Source: an uncultured Bacteroidales bacterium (GTDB lineage Bacteria > Bacteroidota > Bacteroidia > Bacteroidales > FEN-979). From it: a stretch of 64,000 nucleotides of DNA. Location of the stretch: positions 15,078 through 79,077 of the forward strand of contig CAJAUM010000070.1 of assembly GCA_903945175.1 (NCBI GenBank). Reading direction: 5' to 3'. This document shows, one piece after another, positions 8,382 through 51,398 of the stretch (positions within the stretch are counted from its first letter, which is position 1; the number at the start of each line of letters is the position of its first letter). The notes under the pieces are model-generated. The model was not told the DNA's origin and did no database searches. It was given only the letters and a program-made list of their open reading frames with translations. The translations under genes and the position numbers were made by a program.

Positions 8382-11299
8382 TAGCCAAATACATCCTTTA
8401 ATTCCAGCGAATTTACCGGTCCGTAGGATGAAAGGGTTTTCATATCCAGTTCAGACTTTTTGCCCAGCACCATGATGGTGAAGTTTTTGTCCTTTATACA
8501 CTTCTGTTGAAAAACTTTCAGGTCGGCAAAGGTCATCATTGGCACCTTCTCAAATACATCTTTGCGGATATCATAGGTGAGCCCGAATTTCATGGCATTG
8601 ATATAATTGAACAACACCTGCGATTTGGTGATCCGCTCAGTCCGAATCTTGTTTATGATCGCCTCACGGGATGAATTCAGGGCCTTTTCACTTTCCGGCA
8701 TGTTGTTAAACAGGCCAACCATGGCCTTCATGGCTTCCGGAAGCTTGTCGATTTGTGTCCCGATATAGGAGAAGAGATAATAATTCTGATAGGGCTGCTG
8801 TGGCGGACGATAGCCGGCATACGCACTGTAGGCAAGCCCTTTTGATTCACGAATTTCCTGGAAAACAATTGAATTCATGCTGCCGCCAAAATATTCATTG
8901 AACAGGCGAACCACCGGAACGACAGTCTTATCATATTTATCCGACTTTGAAAGCATAATGATCTCGGCCTGCTTCATATCGTAATCCACGGTATACACTT
9001 TATTGGCATCCGTCGGTTTCTGCTCAAACATTACTGCAGTAGGAACCGGCTTTAATACGGCCGGCACCTGGTGCTCCTGATCCATAAGTAAAGTCAGCTT
9101 ATCTGTCTTATCAGGGCCATAATAAAGCACTTTATGTTTATACCCATTCAATCCTTTGATCAGGGCAACCAGATCTCCGGCTTTGAGTGCATCCAATTCA
9201 GATGACGATAAGATATGCGTGTAGGGTGACTTTTCGCCATAAACGCCATAGTTGTACATCGCAGACCAGAGAATGGTTTGCTTTGAAAGTTTGTCATCAT
9301 CCCTGCGTTTCTTGAGATCTGCCACCAGGTTCTTCAGCGCCTGATCGTTGGGAAGGGCCGTTGAGAGTAAATGCTCAAACAGTGAAACTGATTTGGCCAT
9401 ATTTTCGCTCAATCCGCTGAGTGAAACCCAAACATCGACATCTGAACTGTTCACGCTGAATGAACAACCCAATTTGTAGAACTCCTCCTGAATCTGGTTG
9501 GGTGAATATTTCGAAGTGCCCAGGTACTTCAGGTAATCAAGGGCGATACCCAGCTCACGGTTACTGTTGGTGCCCATTTCAAAGAAATAGTACAGTGAAA
9601 AGGTTTCATTCTCGGTATTTTCTTTATATAGCACAGGAATGTTACTTTTGATATTGAACTTTTTAATATCCTTTGCATAATCAAGGAATACCGGTTCAAT
9701 CAATGTACCAGGTTCCGACATTATCTTCTTGAGGAAGGCTGACTCCTCATCACGGTTCATGGTAACCGGAGTAATCTGCGGTTTCTGGATTTTCGCCGTT
9801 TCTTTTGCCTGTCCATTGCGCTTGTAAACGATGACATAGTTGTCCCCATAATTTTTATTGGCAAAATCTATCACATCCTTTTTGGTGATCTTTGAAAGAC
9901 GATTTACATTGTTCACTATATCAGCATGGGGTAGTTCCTTCACGAACTCGTCCACCAATTCCATGGTACGTCCGAAATTATTCTCATATTTCTTTATTTC
10001 AGCCAGTTTAAAATCATTGATGATGGCCGGGATAAGCCAATCTGGAAATTCGCCTTTCCTGACCAGCCCGATTTGTGACATGATGAGGTCTTTCACCTCT
10101 TCAAGCGATTGGCCCTCTTTGGCCTTTCCTGAAAAAACATTCACGGAGTAATCTTTCAGAACATAAGAAAATGCACTTGCTTCCAGCACCTTTTGTGCCT
10201 GATTCAGGTTCAGATCCAGCAAACCGGCCTTGCTGTTGCTTAATACCATATTGCACATCGTGACCAAATCCGCATCTTTCGTATCAACCCCACCCAGGCG
10301 ATAGCCAATGGTCACCGATTCAGCATCAGGTCCGAGAACCTCCTTCACAATGGGTTTTGTTATAGGATCCTCTTTAGCCGGAACATACGGAGTAACGGGC
10401 TTAGAGGCAAGCTGTCCGAATGTGGCATCCACCAGTTTGATCATCTCATCTGGATTAAAATCGCCTGAAAGTACAATGGCCATGTTATTGGGAACATACT
10501 TTGATGCAAAATAATTCCGCAGGGAGACAAGCGATGGATTTTTCAGATGCTCCACAGTTCCGAGGGTCGTTTGGGTTCCATAGGTATTCTTCTGAAATAA
10601 ACCGGAAAATAATTCATCAAAAATCTTATCATCATCATTGTCAAGACTCATGTTCTTCTCTTCATAAACGGTTTCCAATTCGGTATGGAACAACCTAAAG
10701 ACAGGATCCTGAAAACGTTCCCGTTCAATCTCCAGCCACTGGTTGGTTTTGTTCGACGGGATATCATTGATGTACACCGTCTCCTCAAAAGAGGTAAAGG
10801 CGTTGGTGCCTTTTGCCCCGATCACCGAGAGCAGCTTATCATACTCATTGGCAATGGCATAGGTAGCTGCAACACCCGACAAACTATCGATTTCGTGATA
10901 GATTTTTTTACGCTGAAGGGTATCCAACGTTTTTTTATACACCTCAAATTTGTATTCGATTTGATCGAGCAACGCCTTTTCTTTAACAAAATCTCTTGTC
11001 CCAAATTCATCGGTGCCCTTAAACATGATATGTTCGAGGTAATGCGACATTCCCGTATTGTCCGAAGGATCGTTTTTACTACCGGTCCGCACAGCAATGG
11101 CAGTCTGGATACGGGGTGCATCCTTGTAGACTGTGAGATAGACCTTGAGGCCGTTGTTCAGTGTGTATATCCTGGCCTTGAGCGGGTCGCCCGGAACGCT
11201 GTCATATTTATACGGTTTCTGACCAGCCTGAACGCTGAAGCTGAATGCCAGCGCAAACAACAATGCAATCATTGCAAAGCGTGTAATCGTCGTTTTCAT
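8378..11299 (-). CDS. M16 family (insulinase-like) zinc peptidase, exported
   Basis: Signal peptide, TGMSHYLEHIMFKGT (HxxEH), NAFTS, C-terminal IRESKGLAYSA. Confidence 0.9.
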   Translation of the reverse strand: MKTTITRFAMIALLFALAFSFSVQAGQKPYKYDSVPGDPLKARIYTLNNGLKVYLTVYKDAPRIQTAIAVRTGSKNDPSDNTGMSHYLEHIMFKGTDEFGTRDFVKEKALLDQIEYKFEVYKKTLDTLQRKKIYHEIDSLSGVAATYAIANEYDKLLSVIGAKGTNAFTSFEETVYINDIPSNKTNQWLEIERERFQDPVFRLFHTELETVYEEKNMSLDNDDDKIFDELFSGLFQKNTYGTQTTLGTVEHLKNPSLVSLRNYFASKYVPNNMAIVLSGDFNPDEMIKLVDATFGQLASKPVTPYVPAKEDPITKPIVKEVLGPDAESVTIGYRLGGVDTKDADLVTMCNMVLSNSKAGLLDLNLNQAQKVLEASAFSYVLKDYSVNVFSGKAKEGQSLEEVKDLIMSQIGLVRKGEFPDWLIPAIINDFKLAEIKKYENNFGRTMELVDEFVKELPHADIVNNVNRLSKITKKDVIDFANKNYGDNYVIVYKRNGQAKETAKIQKPQITPVTMNRDEESAFLKKIMSEPGTLIEPVFLDYAKDIKKFNIKSNIPVLYKENTENETFSLYYFFEMGTNSNRELGIALDYLKYLGTSKYSPNQIQEEFYKLGCSFSVNSSDVDVWVSLSGLSENMAKSVSLFEHLLSTALPNDQALKNLVADLKKRRDDDKLSKQTILWSAMYNYGVYGEKSPYTHILSSSELDALKAGDLVALIKGLNGYKHKVLYYGPDKTDKLTLLMDQEHQVPAVLKPVPTAVMFEQKPTDANKVYTVDYDMKQAEIIMLSKSDKYDKTVVPVVRLFNEYFGGSMNSIVFQEIRESKGLAYSAYAGYRPPQQPYQNYYLFSYIGTQIDKLPEAMKAMVGLFNNMPESEKALNSSREAIINKIRTERITKSQVLFNYINAMKFGLTYDIRKDVFEKVPMMTFADLKVFQQKCIKDKNFTIMVLGKKSELDMKTLSSYGPVNSLELKDVFGY

Positions 11300-11356
11300 A
11301 AAAGTGTCTTTTGGTGGAATTGATGGGTTTATATAATTTTTCTATCGGTTTGATTT

Positions 11357-12742
11357 CTATTTATGGAACTTCCTGATAAAGTCCTCCACCTCCGGTACGC
11401 CACCCTGGTAAATCAGGTAACCGTTGTAAGGCTCCCTTTTCGTGATTTCATCGTTGATGGGGGTCAGCATGATCTCCTTCACTTTGGCCAGGTCGGAGGT
11501 TTGACCCAGCGCCCAGCTTAGCTTGATAAACGCAGTTTCAGGCAGCATATTTTCAGCCGGGATGATTCCTTTGGCCATCAGGTCGCGCCCGGTATCATAT
11601 ACAAACATATGGACATATCCCCACAGGGTTTGCACGGTCATATAGATTGCGACACCCTTGGCAATGGCCCGTTCGATGGCGGGATAGATCGGCTTGTTCA
11701 CATGACCCAACCCGGTGCCAATGATGATGATCCCCTTATACCCTGCATCAACCAGTGCATCGATCACATCGGGTTGCATGTTGGTATAATAATAGATCAT
11801 GGTCACCTTCTCTTCATAATAGGGCATGATCGTCACATTCCGGTCTTTACGCCTGTGGTGGTATTCCTGCTTGATGGGAGTAACTCCCTGCCGGGTTACA
11901 GTGGCCAGCGGGGTATCGCCAATTGTGCGGAAGGTAGAGCGGTATGATGAATGCATTTTGCGGACGCGGGTGCCCTTGTGGAGGAATCCATATTCATCGG
12001 AGGTCGGCCCGAACATACAGACCATCACCTCGGCAATGTCGCCATGTGCAGCAGCAGTGGCCGCATGCATCAGGTTCAGGGCGGCGTCGGAGCTGGGCCG
12101 GTCAGACGAACGCTGGGAGCCGACCAAAACAATGGGTACCGGTGAATTCTGCACCATGAAGGTCAATGCCGCAGAGGTATAATGCAAGGTATCAGTTCCA
12201 TGGCCGATGATGATGCCATCGATCCCCTTTTCGATCTCATTTCCGATGGCGATGGCCAACTTTTTATATTGATCGGGTCCCATGTTTTCACTGAATACCG
12301 CAAACAACTTTTCGGTAGTCAGGTTACAGATATCGGCCAGTTCAGGAACGGCGCCATACAACTCTCCGGGTGAAAATGCAGGTATCACGGCCCCTGTGCG
12401 ATAATCCAGCCTGGATGCAATGGTGCCGCCTGTCCCCAGCAATTTAACATTGGGTTTATCTTTTGAATAGGGGAACTCCTTTTCAGGTATTTTATATACT
12501 GCCTTCTTGTATCCCAGTTCTTCAATACCGGTAATCCCATCAATGGAAACACCGATGTTGTAACCGGTGAAAATTTTCAGTACGATGTGTTTGTCATCGG
12601 TGTTTTCGGCCCGGGGCAATATCGTACCTTCAAACGTACCCCTGCTGCTGTCGACCCGAACCTTTGCCCAGACCCTGGCGGTATATTTCTGCAGTACTTC
12701 GAGTGCGCGGCCTTTATATCCCTGGAATATATCTTCGCTCAT
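11357..12742 (-). CDS. gatD: Glu-tRNA(Gln) amidotransferase subunit D (archaeal type)
   Basis: GatD-specific N-terminal domain (FEGTILPR...HIVLKIFTGYNIGV). Asparaginase-like core with GTGGTIASRLDYRTGAV, HGTDT, GSQRSSDRPSSDA, RVRKMHSS, GTGLGHV. Confidence 0.9.
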   Translation of the reverse strand: MSEDIFQGYKGRALEVLQKYTARVWAKVRVDSSRGTFEGTILPRAENTDDKHIVLKIFTGYNIGVSIDGITGIEELGYKKAVYKIPEKEFPYSKDKPNVKLLGTGGTIASRLDYRTGAVIPAFSPGELYGAVPELADICNLTTEKLFAVFSENMGPDQYKKLAIAIGNEIEKGIDGIIIGHGTDTLHYTSAALTFMVQNSPVPIVLVGSQRSSDRPSSDAALNLMHAATAAAHGDIAEVMVCMFGPTSDEYGFLHKGTRVRKMHSSYRSTFRTIGDTPLATVTRQGVTPIKQEYHHRRKDRNVTIMPYYEEKVTMIYYYTNMQPDVIDALVDAGYKGIIIIGTGLGHVNKPIYPAIERAIAKGVAIYMTVQTLWGYVHMFVYDTGRDLMAKGIIPAENMLPETAFIKLSWALGQTSDLAKVKEIMLTPINDEITKREPYNGYLIYQGGVPEVEDFIRKFHK

Positions 12743-12756
12743 GTTAGTTGGTGGTT

Positions 12757-12780
12757 TAATCGTGACGCGTGACGCGTGAC
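12757..12780 (+). repeat. (CGTGACG)n heptamer repeat in the gatE-gatD spacer
   Basis: taatcgtgacgcgtgacgcgtgac; same family as 1901-1945 and 51371-51398. Confidence 0.85.
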
Positions 12781-12783
12781 AAG

Positions 12784-14748
12784 TTATTCAATTTTAATTC
12801 CCTTGCTAAGTTCTCTCAGGGAGATATTCCCGGTGGCCAGCTTGTTTAGGTTTCCCATAACCCAACGCAATCCTGCAGAATCATCGTGAGAGCTTCTGAT
12901 CTCCTTGTATTTTTTGATAAGGAATGGAACCTTACCAAGAAGTTCCTCCCTGGTCACCGCTTTGAAATTCAGGGTAATCAGAATGGAATCGAAATCCATC
13001 TTGGGGTGTTGGTACAGATGTAACAGCATCCTTTTGGCTATGGCCAAATCCATATTCTTCTCAACAAGAAATTTCATCAAATCAAAAACCTTTTCATAGG
13101 TAAATTCAGGCAAAGCCGGATATTTTCCCTGGATGTATTTCAATGTGTGAGCCAGCAATGAAGATGTAAAACGGGCCGGCACCCCCAACTCAGTCCAGGC
13201 TTTTTCCATGAGGGGGACAAGGTTGTTTTTAAGGATATAGGTATGGGTATCTTCAGGCACATTCCATTCCATCAATTGTTGAATGCGTTCGGAAACCAGT
13301 TTCGGAAGGCCTTTCATTGCTGCGTCAATCGTAGCATCCTCCAGCGGAATGGGTGCTGAGTCTGTATCAGGATACATGCGGTCGGCACCGGGCAGCACGC
13401 GCTCAAATATCGTCGTTCCGTCTTCAAATGATTTCCGTGTTTCGTTCGGCACACCCATGAAGGCCATCTTACAACGTTCTTCAATGGTTTCGAGGGCTGT
13501 TTTGATGTCATCTTCCGGCCCCCAGAATATCAGTTGTGCATCGCCCTCTTTGCTTCCCAGCAGGGAGCGGACTTTGGTCCAGGCCTTCTCACCAACTGCA
13601 TCCTCAAACATTTCAGAATGAGCCAGATTGGGTTTTTCGATGCAGGCAATTACTTTTAGCCTGTCGGAAAATTCATCGGCAAACATTTTCCCTGGCTGGG
13701 TAAAGTGGGATAATATGCCATGAAATTGAGGCAGGTTTACCACATAGACTTTAACCAAGGCGTTTTTGGGCACCCCAAGGTTTTCCAGTTTGAAATCTTT
13801 GGCTTTGACCTCCTTCGACGAAATTTTCCAAGTTACCGTATCCTTGATCCTTGCAATCAATAGATCTTTAATCGCGAGCAAAGCCCATTGCCGGTAAGCT
13901 TCATTGTGCGTGAGTTCGGGCATCCAACCCGTATGGGCCACCCCCTTTATTTCAACTCGGGTTCCACCTTTACAGCTCACGTTCACATCGGCCCTGGTGG
14001 AGCCAATACCACTGCGTACTTTACCGGTACTGCGATTCAGGAAGCGAATGTAATCAGCGCCCTCCTTTACCTCGTCCGGGTTTTTAAAATCGGGGTAGGT
14101 TACAGTCTCGATCAGAGGCATTCCAAGCCGGTCGGTGCGGTAAATACGAACATGCCCGATATCGGAAACTTCGCGACAGGAGTCTTCTTCAAGACTAAGC
14201 TGGATCAGTCTGATTTTCTTGTGTTTCAACTGGATCTCACCCTCAATGCCAATGATTGCCGTGCGCTGAAAGCCGGTGGGGATGGAACCATCGAGGTACT
14301 GTTTCCGTGTAATGTGAACCTCTCCCACCACCTTTAGCTTCGAGAGCAGTGAAATATCAATCGCCTGGAGCAAGGCTTCCTGATTCAGCGGGAAGGGGGG
14401 CGTATCGTCCACATCATAGGTGCAGGCTGTTTCATTTTTAATCCGGTAAATGATGTTTTTTCGCGTTCTGAACTCCATAAGCGCGGTACCATCGTATTCA
14501 CCAAGTTCGCTCAGGGTTGGCCGCATATGGCGGACCAATTCGGCATCATAGTCATCTGCACTTTGAAAAATGCCGGCCGGACAATGGCAAAACAATTTTT
14601 CTTTGGTTTTTAACTGTTGGTGGACCTCCAGTCCCGACATAAAACCAATGCGATCGTAATCAGCCTGGGTGGCTTTTTCGCGTGTGACATATCCCGTTTT
14701 TTGCTTTGTTTCGGCATGGTTGCGCCTTACGTCAAAGGTTTGTTTCAT
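12784..14748 (-). CDS. gatE: Glu-tRNA(Gln) amidotransferase subunit E (archaeal type)
   Basis: GLEVHQQL, KLFCHCP, RPTLSELGEYD, DGSIPTGFQRT, LEEDSCR, DRLGMPLIE, RVEIKGV. Has the AspRS-like insertion ending GVPNETR, then RVLPGADRMYPDTD, and a helical/Yqey-like tail. The start at 14748 is inferred (14790 is an alternative). Confidence 0.9.
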   Translation of the reverse strand: MKQTFDVRRNHAETKQKTGYVTREKATQADYDRIGFMSGLEVHQQLKTKEKLFCHCPAGIFQSADDYDAELVRHMRPTLSELGEYDGTALMEFRTRKNIIYRIKNETACTYDVDDTPPFPLNQEALLQAIDISLLSKLKVVGEVHITRKQYLDGSIPTGFQRTAIIGIEGEIQLKHKKIRLIQLSLEEDSCREVSDIGHVRIYRTDRLGMPLIETVTYPDFKNPDEVKEGADYIRFLNRSTGKVRSGIGSTRADVNVSCKGGTRVEIKGVAHTGWMPELTHNEAYRQWALLAIKDLLIARIKDTVTWKISSKEVKAKDFKLENLGVPKNALVKVYVVNLPQFHGILSHFTQPGKMFADEFSDRLKVIACIEKPNLAHSEMFEDAVGEKAWTKVRSLLGSKEGDAQLIFWGPEDDIKTALETIEERCKMAFMGVPNETRKSFEDGTTIFERVLPGADRMYPDTDSAPIPLEDATIDAAMKGLPKLVSERIQQLMEWNVPEDTHTYILKNNLVPLMEKAWTELGVPARFTSSLLAHTLKYIQGKYPALPEFTYEKVFDLMKFLVEKNMDLAIAKRMLLHLYQHPKMDFDSILITLNFKAVTREELLGKVPFLIKKYKEIRSSHDDSAGLRWVMGNLNKLATGNISLRELSKGIKIE

Positions 14749-14843
14749 TGGATGGGCAGAATAGTGGAAAGAGATTTCAAATTTACCCATTTTGCGGATA
14801 TTTTGAAGTAAATGTTCATTTATTTTGGTAAGATTGACTTTAG

Positions 14844-14851
14844 TATCTTTG
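14844..14851 (+). promoter_or_regulatory. TAnnTTTG -7 promoter element for the OstA-like gene
   Basis: TATCTTTG lies upstream of the ATGs at 14860 and 14872. Confidence 0.55.
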
Positions 14852-14871
14852 CCGATGCTATGCATGAATAT

Positions 14872-16389
14872 ATGACCCGGATTTTCCGACTCCTTTCCCT
14901 GTTTTTTTTACTTGGTCATCTTGCCGGGTTTTCTCAGAAGGAGACTGCTCCTACCAAAATTCAATATTCAGGGACGATCTGGCAATTCAACAAGGACATC
15001 TACCCTGATGGTCCGCGGGTGCTTGGAAATGTGGTTATGAACCACGACAGTGCTTTCCTCTATTGCGACAGCGCCTATGTGAATGAAAAAGCCAACAGGG
15101 TTATCGCATACGGCAATGTGCGTGTCAAACTAAGCGATACGTTGAACCTATATGGCGATTCACTTAAATATGACGGCAATACAAAGATCGCCCATGCAAA
15201 CAGCAATGTCAGGCTGATCGACAACCAAACCACCCTTACCACGGACACCTTGGTCTATAATCGTAAAACGCAGATTGCGCAATACGACTATTGGGGTAAA
15301 ATTGTCAACGCCAACAATTATCTGGTCAGCCAACATGGTTATTATTACACGGATAAAAAGGAATTTTTCTTTAAGCATAAGGTGGTGCTGATCAATCCCG
15401 ATTACACCATGAACTCCGACACGCTCATGTACAATACCCTGACGAAAACTGCCTTCTTTTTTGGTCCTTCGCACATCATCAGCAAAGACAAGCGGGATTC
15501 GATCTACTGCGAAAACGGATGGTACAACACCCATCTCGATATGGCGCGTTTCAGGAACCGTGCACGGATCTATCATGAACAGACATTCCTGACCGGCGAC
15601 AGCATGTTTTATAAACGAAAATCAGGTTTCGGGCAGGTATTTCGGAAGGCATTGCTGATCGATACAAAAAACAACATCCTGTTAATGGGAAATTATGGAG
15701 AGATGCACCGGGAGGCAGGTTTTGCATTCATGACCGACAGTGCCGTTACAGTAATGGCTGAGAAGCGTGATTCACTGTTCATGCATTCCGATACGCTGCG
15801 TGCAACCTTTGACTCAGCGCAAAACATTATCTCCGTATTTTGTTTTTACAAGGTGAAATTCTTCCGGCACGACATGCAGGGAATGTGTGATTCTCTTACA
15901 TATCACCGCCGCGATTCATCGATGACCATGTACCACGATCCGATCATATGGTCAGATTCAAACCAGCTCTCAGCCGATTCGATCAAACTTAAAATGCATA
16001 ACGGGGAGGCCGATTCACTGAAACTTTACAATTCGGCCTTCATTGTCTCAAAAGATGATACCGGAAGCTACAACCAGATCAAGGGACGCAATGTGCTGGC
16101 CAAATTCAGGAACAATGATCTTTACAAAATCAATGTCCTTGGAAATGCAGAAACCATCTATTATTCCAGGGAGGAAGACCGTACTTTGATCGGGATCAAT
16201 GTAACCTTATCAAGTGATATGCTCATATTTCTTGAAAAGAATCAAATACAAACCATCACCTACATCAACAAAGTTGAATCGCACCTTTATCCCGAAAAGG
16301 ATGTGCCGTTTAATGAGCGGAAATTAAAAAATTTCCGATGGGAGGAAAAACGAAGACCGCTTAGAAAGTCGGATATTTTTGTTTGGTAG
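14872..16389 (+). CDS. OstA/LptA-like beta-jellyroll envelope protein
   Basis: Signal peptide, then repeated LYCDSA, LYGDSL, LTTDTL, MNSDTL and LSADSI strands typical of Bacteroidota OstA-like proteins. Confidence 0.75.
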   Translation: MTRIFRLLSLFFLLGHLAGFSQKETAPTKIQYSGTIWQFNKDIYPDGPRVLGNVVMNHDSAFLYCDSAYVNEKANRVIAYGNVRVKLSDTLNLYGDSLKYDGNTKIAHANSNVRLIDNQTTLTTDTLVYNRKTQIAQYDYWGKIVNANNYLVSQHGYYYTDKKEFFFKHKVVLINPDYTMNSDTLMYNTLTKTAFFFGPSHIISKDKRDSIYCENGWYNTHLDMARFRNRARIYHEQTFLTGDSMFYKRKSGFGQVFRKALLIDTKNNILLMGNYGEMHREAGFAFMTDSAVTVMAEKRDSLFMHSDTLRATFDSAQNIISVFCFYKVKFFRHDMQGMCDSLTYHRRDSSMTMYHDPIIWSDSNQLSADSIKLKMHNGEADSLKLYNSAFIVSKDDTGSYNQIKGRNVLAKFRNNDLYKINVLGNAETIYYSREEDRTLIGINVTLSSDMLIFLEKNQIQTITYINKVESHLYPEKDVPFNERKLKNFRWEEKRRPLRKSDIFVW

Positions 16390-16400
16390 AAAACCCGGCG

Positions 16401-16453
16401 AATGACCAATGACCAATTACCAATTACCAATGACCAATTACCAATGACCAATT
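16401..16453 (+). repeat. Heptamer tandem repeat (AATKACC) x7
   Basis: aatgacc aatgacc aattacc aattacc aatgacc aattacc aatgacc aatt. Confidence 0.95.
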
Positions 16454-16462
16454 TTAACTCCA

Positions 16463-16627
16463 TTACCTTGTTACCTTGTCACCTTGTTACCTTGTCACCT
16501 TGTCACCTTGTTACCTTGTTACCTTGTCACCTTGTCACCTTGTCACCTTGTCACCTTGTCACCTTGTCACCTTGTCACCTTGTCACCTTGTCACCTTGTC
16601 ACCCTGTCACCCTGTTACCCTGTCACC
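16463..16627 (+). repeat. Octamer tandem repeat (TYACCYTG) x~20
   Basis: About 20 contiguous ttaccttg/tcaccttg/tcaccctg units between the convergent OstA-like and mlaD genes. Confidence 0.97.
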
Positions 16628-16629
16628 TC

Positions 16630-51329: not shown

Positions 51330-51398
51330 ATTTCAGATTTACGATTTCAGATTTCAGATTTTCGTTTTTTTGTCACGCGTCACCTGTCACGCGTCACG
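51330..51398. repeat. Heptamer repeats in the spacer between the NuoF-like and StnC-like genes: (ATTTCAG/ATTTACG) x5 and a (GTCACGC)-type cluster
   Basis: atttcag atttacg atttcag atttcag attttcg at 51330-51364; tgtcacgcgtcacctgtcacgcgtcacg at 51371-51398. Confidence 0.85.

Follow-up and report, generated by a model that had tools for sequence, protein, structure and literature searches.

Excerpts from three reviews describe the amidotransferase GatDE as exclusively archaeal and argue from this restriction about how it co-evolved with the tRNA(Gln) of archaea, why archaea lack GlnRS and which genes LUCA contained (PMC2811023, PMC8007984, PMC9499178). The GatDE enzymes treated in one of these excerpts are specific for Glu-tRNA(Gln), and in the solved GatDE the tRNA is recognised through its first base pair and its D-loop (PMC2811023). 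According to another, the first pair of archaeal tRNA(Gln) is A1-U72, and A73 is the archaeal discriminator state (PMC9499178). GatCAB is described, in an excerpt from a further paper, as the asparagine route of Deinococcus, Thermus and Bdellovibrio, which have both AsnRS and GlnRS (PMC4206432). A literature search of open-access full text, including GatDE papers since 2013, returned no paper describing a bacterial GatDE among those listed.

The window, by which is meant the whole 64,000-nucleotide stretch of an uncultured freshwater Bacteroidales genome that was analysed, contains two adjacent and intact open reading frames on the minus strand, gatE at positions 12784 to 14748 and gatD at positions 11357 to 12742. 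GatE corresponds to the kinase/transamidase subunit and has 654 residues from the ATG given in the initial annotation; the longest form of its reading frame extends up to 14865, further possible ATG starts upstream are at 14790 and 14865, and an ATG giving a product of 668 residues is also chosen by gene callers. GatD, with 461 residues, corresponds to the asparaginase-like, ammonia-releasing subunit with the GatD N-terminal domain. The gatE product passes the cut-offs of NF003107 (460.7 bits; cut-off 456) and TIGR00134 (409.3 bits; cut-off 319.55), and the best GatB model, with 117.3 bits, does not pass its cut-off of 338. The gatD product passes those of NF003217 (503.6 bits; cut-off 310) and TIGR02153 (497 bits; cut-off 324) and is composed of the Pfam domains GatD_N (50.1 bits; cut-off 25.7), Asparaginase and Asparaginase_C. 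The core of GatD resembles type I L-asparaginase, matching TIGR00519 with 373 bits, but GatD differs from that enzyme in having GatD_N, in its higher score on the GatD equivalogs and in the operon link to gatE. Since the equivalog cut-offs are passed and GatB sequences split from GatE with a support of 100 in the tree, the pair is, as the initial annotation had proposed, a true GatE and GatD rather than a GatB with a plain asparaginase.

GatE matches the archaeal structures of Methanothermobacter thermautotrophicus (PDB code: 2D6F, chain C, E = 4.5e-90) and Pyrococcus abyssi (PDB code: 1ZQ1, chain C, E = 4.6e-79) in continuous alignments over residues 30–560 and 29–614, respectively, and GatD matches chain A of 1ZQ1 (E = 1.2e-115) and of 2D6F (E = 2e-113). 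The domain set of GatE consists of a cradle, a GatE-type insertion, a helical domain and a YqeY-like tail. Since the Pfam GatB_N match is stretched, with 274 profile positions spread over 437 residues, and the alignment with chain C of 2D6F is unbroken, the GatE-specific insertion is present. In solved GatE this domain within the cradle is AspRS-like, the name that the initial annotation also uses. The motifs GLE.HQQ, EED.CRE, DRL..PL.E, R.D.N.S, R.EIKG and RMYPDTD, which hold putative catalytic residues assigned by homology, are invariant or nearly so in 80 of 80 Bacteroidales-type and 77 of 77 other-phylum copies of GatE and are visible in both structural alignments. Likewise, GTGGTIAS, QRSSDRPSSDA, VRKMHSS, GTGLGH and the H-G-T-D of HGTDT in GatD are invariant in two sets of copies (69/69 and 68/68), and HGTDT ends in Thr in 69/69 copies of one set and in 59/68 of the other. 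Mean column conservation among the 80 Bacteroidales-type GatE sequences is 0.71 in the insertion, 0.73 in the helical domain and 0.64 in the tail, and these tRNA-binding parts are retained. The tail keeps a conserved MGnL.k.A.GN motif but does not have the basic RGK/RGR motif seen in GatE of archaea and of other bacteria.

The gatE–gatD operon is genuine, expressed and selectively maintained. A misassembled or chimeric contig is ruled out by a 29,177-nt DNA contig from another study, which spans window positions 10800–15300 with both flanks, and by the syntenic flank in 43–57 of 80 related loci, so that the initial annotation was right on this point. The 41-nt spacer (12743–12783, minus strand) carries 2.9 exact tandem copies of CGTGACG at 12761–12780, detected in the sequence with TRF, which the initial annotation took for the host's own repeat. 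CGTGACG also makes up arrays at 1905–1945 and 51372–51398 (TRF); its plain count in the window, seven occurrences, is not above chance (expected 3.55 ± 1.84; 6/100 shuffles reach 7). In two further DNA runs (X10 and X17), contigs carry a spacer that is one heptamer copy shorter. The flanking genes are envelope genes encoding M16 peptidase, OstA_2, MlaD, Amidase_3 and LptD_2. Two metatranscriptome libraries contain contigs that agree with parts of gatE and gatD at ≥99%, and uncovered stretches in the RNA libraries X18 and X19 carry no meaning. The dN/dS ratio shows purifying selection, being 0.027–0.039 for gatE and 0.012–0.022 for gatD, which equals or falls below the 0.036–0.082 of the neighbouring envelope genes; GatD is 94–98% identical across the genus, no pseudogene was found among the full-length matches, and most of the matches listed are without internal stops.

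The case is not a rare one: the operon is widespread, and databases already label these bacterial proteins GatE. The gatE gene is present in 24/24 genomes of the genus, is above cut-off in 139 of the 301 sampled genomes of the order and occurs in 97 of its 209 genera. Roughly one in two of the Bacteroidales families sampled contains the clade, as do several other phyla, with gatE in at least 599 species-representative loci under labels such as Ignavibacteria, Aminicenantes, Planctomycetota and Cloacimonetes. The pair described here is unexceptional within a large bacterial GatDE clade. Among the genomes sampled from the remaining orders of the class the gene was not detected, two large families included (0/63 and 0/49). 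Families of mixed GatE status exist, and the distribution is patchy. This patchiness would fit a redundant relic, in which GatDE is an ancestral Gln-tRNA route that became dispensable when GlnRS arrived and is now being lost. Such a relic is nevertheless very improbable, since the low dN/dS ratios of both genes, the lack of pseudogenes and the near identity of GatD across the genus amount to a constraint so tight that a neutral relic is not expected.

Bacterial GatE forms a single clade with a support of 100, within which the Bacteroidales sequences stand on a long branch (0.40). Because gatE is found genus-wide, order-wide and across phyla and the bacterial sequences fall into one fully supported clade, the acquisition of GatDE by bacteria is supported as old. 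In a quick GatB-rooted tree, bacterial GatE is nested beside a Heimdallarchaeota-labelled cluster with a support of 98, but when the archaeal rows are constrained to stay in one group, the tree gains 25.5 log-likelihood units and has a p-AU of 0.7, and so nesting within the Asgard archaea is not upheld by the AU test. Of the old archaea-to-bacteria transfer proposed initially, the age is supported and the direction stays a proposal.

The genome has glnS (754.8 bits), asnS and a single gltX of bacterial type; gatCAB was not found in it, the GatB models remaining below their cut-offs, and a search for a second GluRS gave none. In the order, glnS is present in 134 of the 141 GatE-bearing genomes and gatB in two of the other seven (G106 and G236), and from other phyla five GatE-bearing genomes were checked, each of which carries at least one of glnS and gatB. 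The remaining five genomes of the order (G088, G029, G188, G132 and G219), in which neither glnS nor gatB was found, are 63–96% complete. Three GatE-minus genomes (G091, G294 and G309) show no Gln-tRNA route at all, indicating that gaps of this size arise from genome incompleteness, and GatDE as the sole Gln-tRNA route is accordingly unsupported. In family f83, gatE is present in 6/6 genomes and glnS in 2/6, and gatB is present in 4/4 genomes of its genus g85. In G088 and G220, where synteny was viewed for a clean deletion of glnS, glnS and gltX are not linked.

The setting expected for GatDE, a non-discriminating GluRS without GlnRS, differs from that of this genome, where glnS is present and GluRS keeps a putative discriminating Arg. 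In Thermus thermophilus, Arg358 of GluRS is described, in an excerpt on that enzyme, as the discriminating determinant (PMC2978374), and the Arg of the K-E/D-R motif, a putative reader of C36 matched to Arg358 by coordinates only, may be its equivalent. All the genomes compared, 37/37 GatE-plus and 34/34 GatE-minus, have this Arg; the two groups are not told apart by any GluRS column (best column difference 0.64), and GluRS identity between them equals that within them, 58%. The tRNA(Gln) genes for UUG and CUG both have U1-A72 rather than the archaeal A1-U72, the two states that the initial annotation had set side by side, and tRNA(Glu) and tRNA(Asp) have G1-U72 and G1-C72, so that this pair distinguishes tRNA(Gln) from both. 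A further 32 tRNA(Gln) genes, taken from 30 additional genomes of the order, show the same pair, and no co-variation of tRNA(Gln) with GatDE was detected, U1-A72 and A73 being the same with or without it. Given glnS and asnS, the lack of a second GluRS, the invariant Arg and the constant tRNA(Gln) pair, the claim that a third bacterial route to Gln-tRNA(Gln) is needed here is not supported.

These observations lead to the hypothesis, which we hold to be slightly better than evenly probable, that the pair works as a Glu-tRNA(Gln) amidotransferase and is maintained as a second route in parallel to GlnRS. It would be second rather than sole because the genome also has GlnRS, which on paper makes the GatDE route unnecessary for viability. 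By homology, GatD would hydrolyse Gln or Asn to release ammonia; GatE, with ATP, would activate the side-chain carboxyl of Glu esterified to tRNA(Gln) and then amidate the activated Glu to give Gln-tRNA(Gln). GatDE would thereby capture Glu-tRNA(Gln) produced by the single bacterial-type GluRS; here we infer the substrate, the amide donor and the mischarging of tRNA(Gln) by GluRS. [quoted passage not shown]

Several of these contrary points bear on repurposing, the alternative that the initial annotation had tied to the presence of glnS, which is indeed present. A repurposed enzyme would keep the amidotransferase chemistry and act on another acyl-tRNA or on a non-tRNA carboxylate, which would account for its persistence beside GlnRS or GatCAB. 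The nearly constant co-occurrence of GatDE with another complete Gln-tRNA(Gln) route, the absence of any GluRS or tRNA(Gln) signature, and the long branch and altered tail motif of Bacteroidales GatE are all consistent with this, but all the catalytic motifs and tRNA-binding domains are retained under strong constraint, and no conserved extra neighbour hints at another pathway. The two genes of the predicted complex are adjacent, gatD adjoining gatE in 73/80 Bacteroidales-type loci and following it in 67/80 loci of other phyla; the commonest neighbour cluster apart from them is found in 7/80 loci. Neither an informative neighbour gene among the loci examined nor a nearby tRNA gene in 110/110 loci was found, apart from one tmRNA. 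Moreover, Archaea too retain GatDE alongside GatCAB. Repurposing is therefore considered unlikely.

A supply of asparagine, in which GatDE amidates Asp-tRNA(Asn), alone or besides Glu-tRNA(Gln), as the cell's only asparagine route, is quite improbable. The suspicion arises since asnA was not found in this genome, which is 98% complete, and its asnB-family matches are below cut-off and fit best as a lasso-peptide cyclase beside an ABC exporter. G146 and G266, the only further genomes sampled from the family, likewise show neither gene, tRNA(Asn) of this genome shares the U1-A72 pair, and GatCAB offers a precedent, as far as the excerpt cited goes (PMC4206432). Across the order, asnA is present in 18/141 GatE-plus versus 88/160 GatE-minus genomes, and neither asnA nor an asnB-family gene in 61/141 versus 31/160, although the asnB counts are noisy because TIGR01536 matches include paralogues. 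Among 13 families of mixed GatE status, picked by eye, however, one contrast fits compensation, three are opposite and nine show no difference, suggesting that the order-wide association reflects shared ancestry or habitat. In addition, 80/141 GatE-plus genomes carry at least one of asnA and the asnB family, 31 GatE-minus genomes have neither, and the GatDE enzymes studied are specific for Glu-tRNA(Gln), at least in the excerpt cited (PMC2811023). The order-wide counts and the family contrasts thus weakly contradict an asparagine role.

Because other routes co-occur nearly always and yet selection is very strong, bacterial GatDE may have a non-redundant role. It may, as we suggest only tentatively, do what the other routes cannot, making Asn on tRNA(Asn) in genomes that, like this one, have no asnA and no true asnB, or supplying Gln-tRNA at times when free glutamine is scarce. 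According to an old proposal, GatDE is older than the separation of the domains; a single deep bacterial clade whose placement within Archaea is not required by the data would make this proposal directly testable, a further part of the same tentative suggestion. The bacterial clade undercuts the premises drawn from an archaea-only GatDE. If the bacterial enzyme works, it does so with U1-A72 tRNAs, and it is found beside GlnRS or GatCAB. The clade also poses the biochemical question of what the substrate is and why two routes are kept.

Compared with the archaeal GatDE of M. thermautotrophicus and P. abyssi, the locus has the same two subunits, the same domain set and the same catalytic motifs, but it lies in a bacterium that has GlnRS, AsnRS and a GluRS of bacterial type, the tRNA(Gln) of this bacterium differs at the first pair from the archaeal state given in the excerpt cited above (PMC9499178), its Bacteroidales tail is without the RGK-type basic motif, and it belongs to a separate bacterial clade. 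Compared with GatCAB of Deinococcus, Thermus and Bdellovibrio, it differs in that GatD rather than GatA is the ammonia donor and that there is no GatC. In both cases an amidotransferase is kept despite the two direct synthetases, and asnA and a true asnB are missing here as they are, according to the excerpt on GatCAB, in those bacteria (PMC4206432).

The adjacent genes gatE (12784-14748, minus strand, 654 aa) and gatD (11357-12742, minus strand, 461 aa, the downstream frame of the pair) pass the equivalog cut-offs for both subunits of the GatDE amidotransferase. GatD scores 503.6 bits with NF003217 (cut-off 310) and 497 bits with TIGR02153 (cut-off 324), and contains GatD_N and both asparaginase domains in Pfam. 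GatE scores 460.7 bits with NF003107 (cut-off 456) and 409.3 bits with TIGR00134 (cut-off 319.55), whereas the best GatB model reaches 117 bits, below its cut-off of 338. In agreement with this, residues 30-560 of GatE match the solved structure of Methanothermobacter thermautotrophicus GatE (2d6f_C, E 4.5e-90), GatE also matches Pyrococcus abyssi GatE (1zq1_C, E 4.6e-79), and GatD matches 1zq1_A (E 1.2e-115) and 2d6f_A (E 2e-113). The longest gatE frame extends to 14865, but since most close GatE homologues are 653-655 aa long, the ATG at 14748 is favoured as the start. The initial annotation of a GatE/GatD pair is correct, and the two genes look functional from their sequences.

Both proteins are conserved at their motifs. 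The GatD motifs GTGGTIAS, QRSSDRPSSDA, VRKMHSS and GTGLGH are invariant in all 69 Bacteroidales-type and all 68 other-phylum copies, as are H-G-T-D of HGTDT, the last Thr of which is present in 69/69 and 59/68 copies, respectively. In GatE, none of the conserved motif residues, RMYPDTD among them, varies across the 80 Bacteroidales-type or the 77 other-phylum copies. Among Bacteroidales-type copies, conservation is 0.90 in the cradle, 0.71 in the insertion, 0.73 in the helical domain and 0.64 in the tail. In pairwise comparisons with seven relatives, gatE has a dN/dS of 0.027-0.039 and gatD of 0.012-0.022, and the two neighbouring envelope genes have 0.036-0.082, all of these values being rough because dS is near or beyond saturation.

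An assembly artefact is ruled out by an independent spanning contig, flank synteny and even G+C along the window. A DNA run from a separate study yielded a 29,177-nt contig that spans 10800-15300 without a break, in agreement with the initial argument against a chimeric contig. This contig differs from the window by 7 substitutions and one missing heptamer copy at 12761, and a second run has the same 7-nt difference. Among 80 related loci, gatD is present in 73, and on the flanking side OstA_2 is syntenic in 57, MlaD in 53, Amidase_3 in 51 and LptD_2 in 43. Within the 41-nt gatE-gatD spacer, CGTGACG is repeated 2.9 times without mismatch (12761-12780), and this array varies by one copy between metagenome assemblies, 7 nt being absent in the DNA runs X10 and X17. 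Further CGTGACG/GTCACGC arrays lie at 1905-1945 and 51372-51398, all three being intergenic; the raw count of CGTGACG in the window is 7, within chance. Two other abutting tandem arrays, AATGACC (about 7 copies) followed by ACCTTGTC (about 20 copies, score 272), occupy 16401-16628 between OstA-like and MlaD-like genes, where the repeats stay open in one frame and so give a spurious ORF of 95 aa. In two metatranscriptome libraries, short contigs align to portions of both gatD and gatE at 99% or above, which is compatible with transcription of the genes, although DNA carry-over may also account for it.

The window locus is one unremarkable representative of a large GatDE clade in bacteria. A gatE gene scores above cut-off in 27 of 41 relatives, and each of the 24 further genomes from the genus has a match, which in three cases is split or cut at contig ends. 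Among 301 evenly drawn Bacteroidales genomes, gatE is above cut-off in 139, and 97 of the 209 genera contain a match. When 301 genomes were drawn at the level of the phylum, gatE was detected in 12 genomes of other classes and in no sampled genome from the remaining orders of this class, where two large families gave 0/63 and 0/49. A protein search listed 120 close homologues, many of which carry the NCBI or JGI name [quoted passage not shown]. With one genome per species, 477 close gatE loci were found, and a profile of diverse bacterial copies recovered at least 599, with labels including Ignavibacteria, Melioribacteraceae, Kapaibacterium, Chlorobiota, Rhodothermaceae, Aminicenantes, Phycisphaerae/Planctomycetota, Cloacimonetes, Neomarinimicrobiota, Fermentibacteria and Aegiribacteria, among more. 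In other phyla, gatE is followed by gatD on the same strand in 67 of 80 loci, which share no conserved neighbours beyond the pair. In 13 of these 67 (within L184-L263) the genes are separated by 100-1500 nt, so that an inserted gene is possible. Across 110 loci (subsets of L019-L098 and L184-L262), the 4-6 kb around gatE contain no tRNA gene, which is fewer than roughly expected from tRNA gene density; many of these loci are syntenic and hence non-independent.

A FastTree phylogeny of the window GatE and 112 full-length cluster representatives, only a few of which have organism names, separates a 33-row clade including the window from an 80-row clade (support 100 each). The former contains one cluster labelled candidate-division bacterium, and the latter four labelled Heimdallarchaeota, Thorarchaeota, Parvarchaeota and "archaeon". 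A quick IQ-TREE analysis of 72 rows (LG+G4, SH-aLRT only) used five GatB sequences from bacteria as the root; it groups the 31 bacterial GatE rows in a single clade (support 100), whose sister is the Heimdall-labelled cluster (support 98), and eleven added named bacterial loci all fall inside the bacterial clade. In an AU test, a tree holding the 36 archaeal-side rows together lies 25.5 log-likelihood units above the free quick tree (p-AU 0.7), the archaeal sampling being biased towards the most query-like clusters. Bacterial GatE is thus a single clade, placed either inside or beside Archaea. For the old archaea-to-bacteria transfer proposed initially, the age is plausible and the direction is not demonstrated.

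The initial annotation had offered a repurposed amidotransferase as the alternative should glnS also be present. The source genome (98% complete, 155 contigs) has glnS (754.8 bits) with tRNA-Gln(CUG) immediately downstream and a single bacterial-type gltX close by, as well as asnS and aspS; gatB is absent and no gatA is above cut-off. The gltX, tRNA-Gln(CUG) and glnS genes lie within 4 kb of one another, outside the window (contig C134:59551-63653), and gltX and glnS are near neighbours in several other order genomes regardless of GatDE (e.g. G060, G141, G082 and G211). Across the order, glnS is found in 289/301 genomes. Seven of the 12 glnS-less genomes are GatE-plus, two of them with gatB; the five lacking both are 63-96% complete, and three GatE-minus genomes likewise show no Gln-tRNA(Gln) route. 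In one genus (g85 of family f83; G106, G236, G326 and G327), gatB and gatE occur in 4/4 genomes and glnS is lacking in 3/4; these are small (about 2.2 Mb) Bacteroidales genomes in which GatCAB and GatDE form an archaeal-style pairing in a bacterium. Among five GatE-plus genomes of other phyla, glnS is present in three, gatB in three and both in one. Because of this co-occurrence with glnS or gatB, GatDE is nowhere clearly the sole route.

GluRS is matched in 288/301 order genomes, two matches occurring in only two, both GatE-minus. No GluRS column separates 37 GatE-plus from 34 GatE-minus sequences, and the Arg of K-E/D-R, taken to be the counterpart of Thermus thermophilus Arg358, is invariant in both sets. 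Replacement of Arg358 by Gln is described in a passage of PMC2978374 as giving a non-discriminating enzyme. Both tRNA(Gln) genes of the source genome (on contigs C52 and C134) have U1-A72 and A73, so the archaeal-like A1-U72 pair is not found; the first pairs of tRNA(Asn), tRNA(Glu) and tRNA(Asp) are U1-A72, G1-U72 and G1-C72. U1-A72 is universal in 17 GatE-plus and 13 GatE-minus genomes (L274-L303), and the discriminator A73, which is archaeal according to the review PMC9499178 (bacteria having G73), occurs in 18/19 GatE-plus and 12/13 GatE-minus genes (30/32 overall), independently of GatDE. None of the co-occurrence, GluRS and tRNA(Gln) comparisons refutes a Glu-tRNA(Gln) role, but neither do they point positively to a dedicated partner for mischarging.

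GatDE might instead, or in addition, act on Asp-tRNA(Asn), supplying asparagine where asnA and true asnB are absent. The source genome lacks asnA, and its asnB-family matches (166.5, 144.3 and 113 bits) fall below the cut-off of 267.1 and fit best as lasso-peptide cyclases. Order-wide, asnA occurs in 18/141 GatE-plus vs 88/160 GatE-minus genomes, an asnB-family gene in 72/141 vs 105/160, and neither in 61/141 vs 31/160 (Fisher p values 6e-15 and 1e-5, ignoring relatedness). However, among 13 families of mixed GatE status, read from tables, compensation fits one, is opposed by three and is neutral in nine. Since only 1/13 family contrasts fits, the asparagine role is kept as a minor alternative to the proposed Glu-tRNA(Gln) route parallel to GlnRS. 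Two asparagine-synthase-like genes of the source genome (L264 and L265; C124:5088-8449 and C73:15561-20174) are best read as lasso-peptide isopeptide-bond cyclases; one such gene is divided between the ends of two contigs, an ABC exporter comes next and a transposase lies close by, giving the appearance of a lasso-peptide cluster.

Bacterial GatDE is already annotated in databases and overlooked by reviews, and no paper on it was found among open-access full texts. The point of interest is function: why GatDE is kept beside GlnRS, and which tRNA is its substrate. Passages of PMC2811023, PMC8007984 and PMC9499178 describe GatDE as exclusive to archaea, as reading A1-U72 and the D-loop, and as possibly as old as LUCA. 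The Bacteroidales GatE tail conserves an MGnL.k.A.GN motif and is without the basic RGK/RGR, whereas archaeal-side and other bacterial GatE copies have RGK/RGR.
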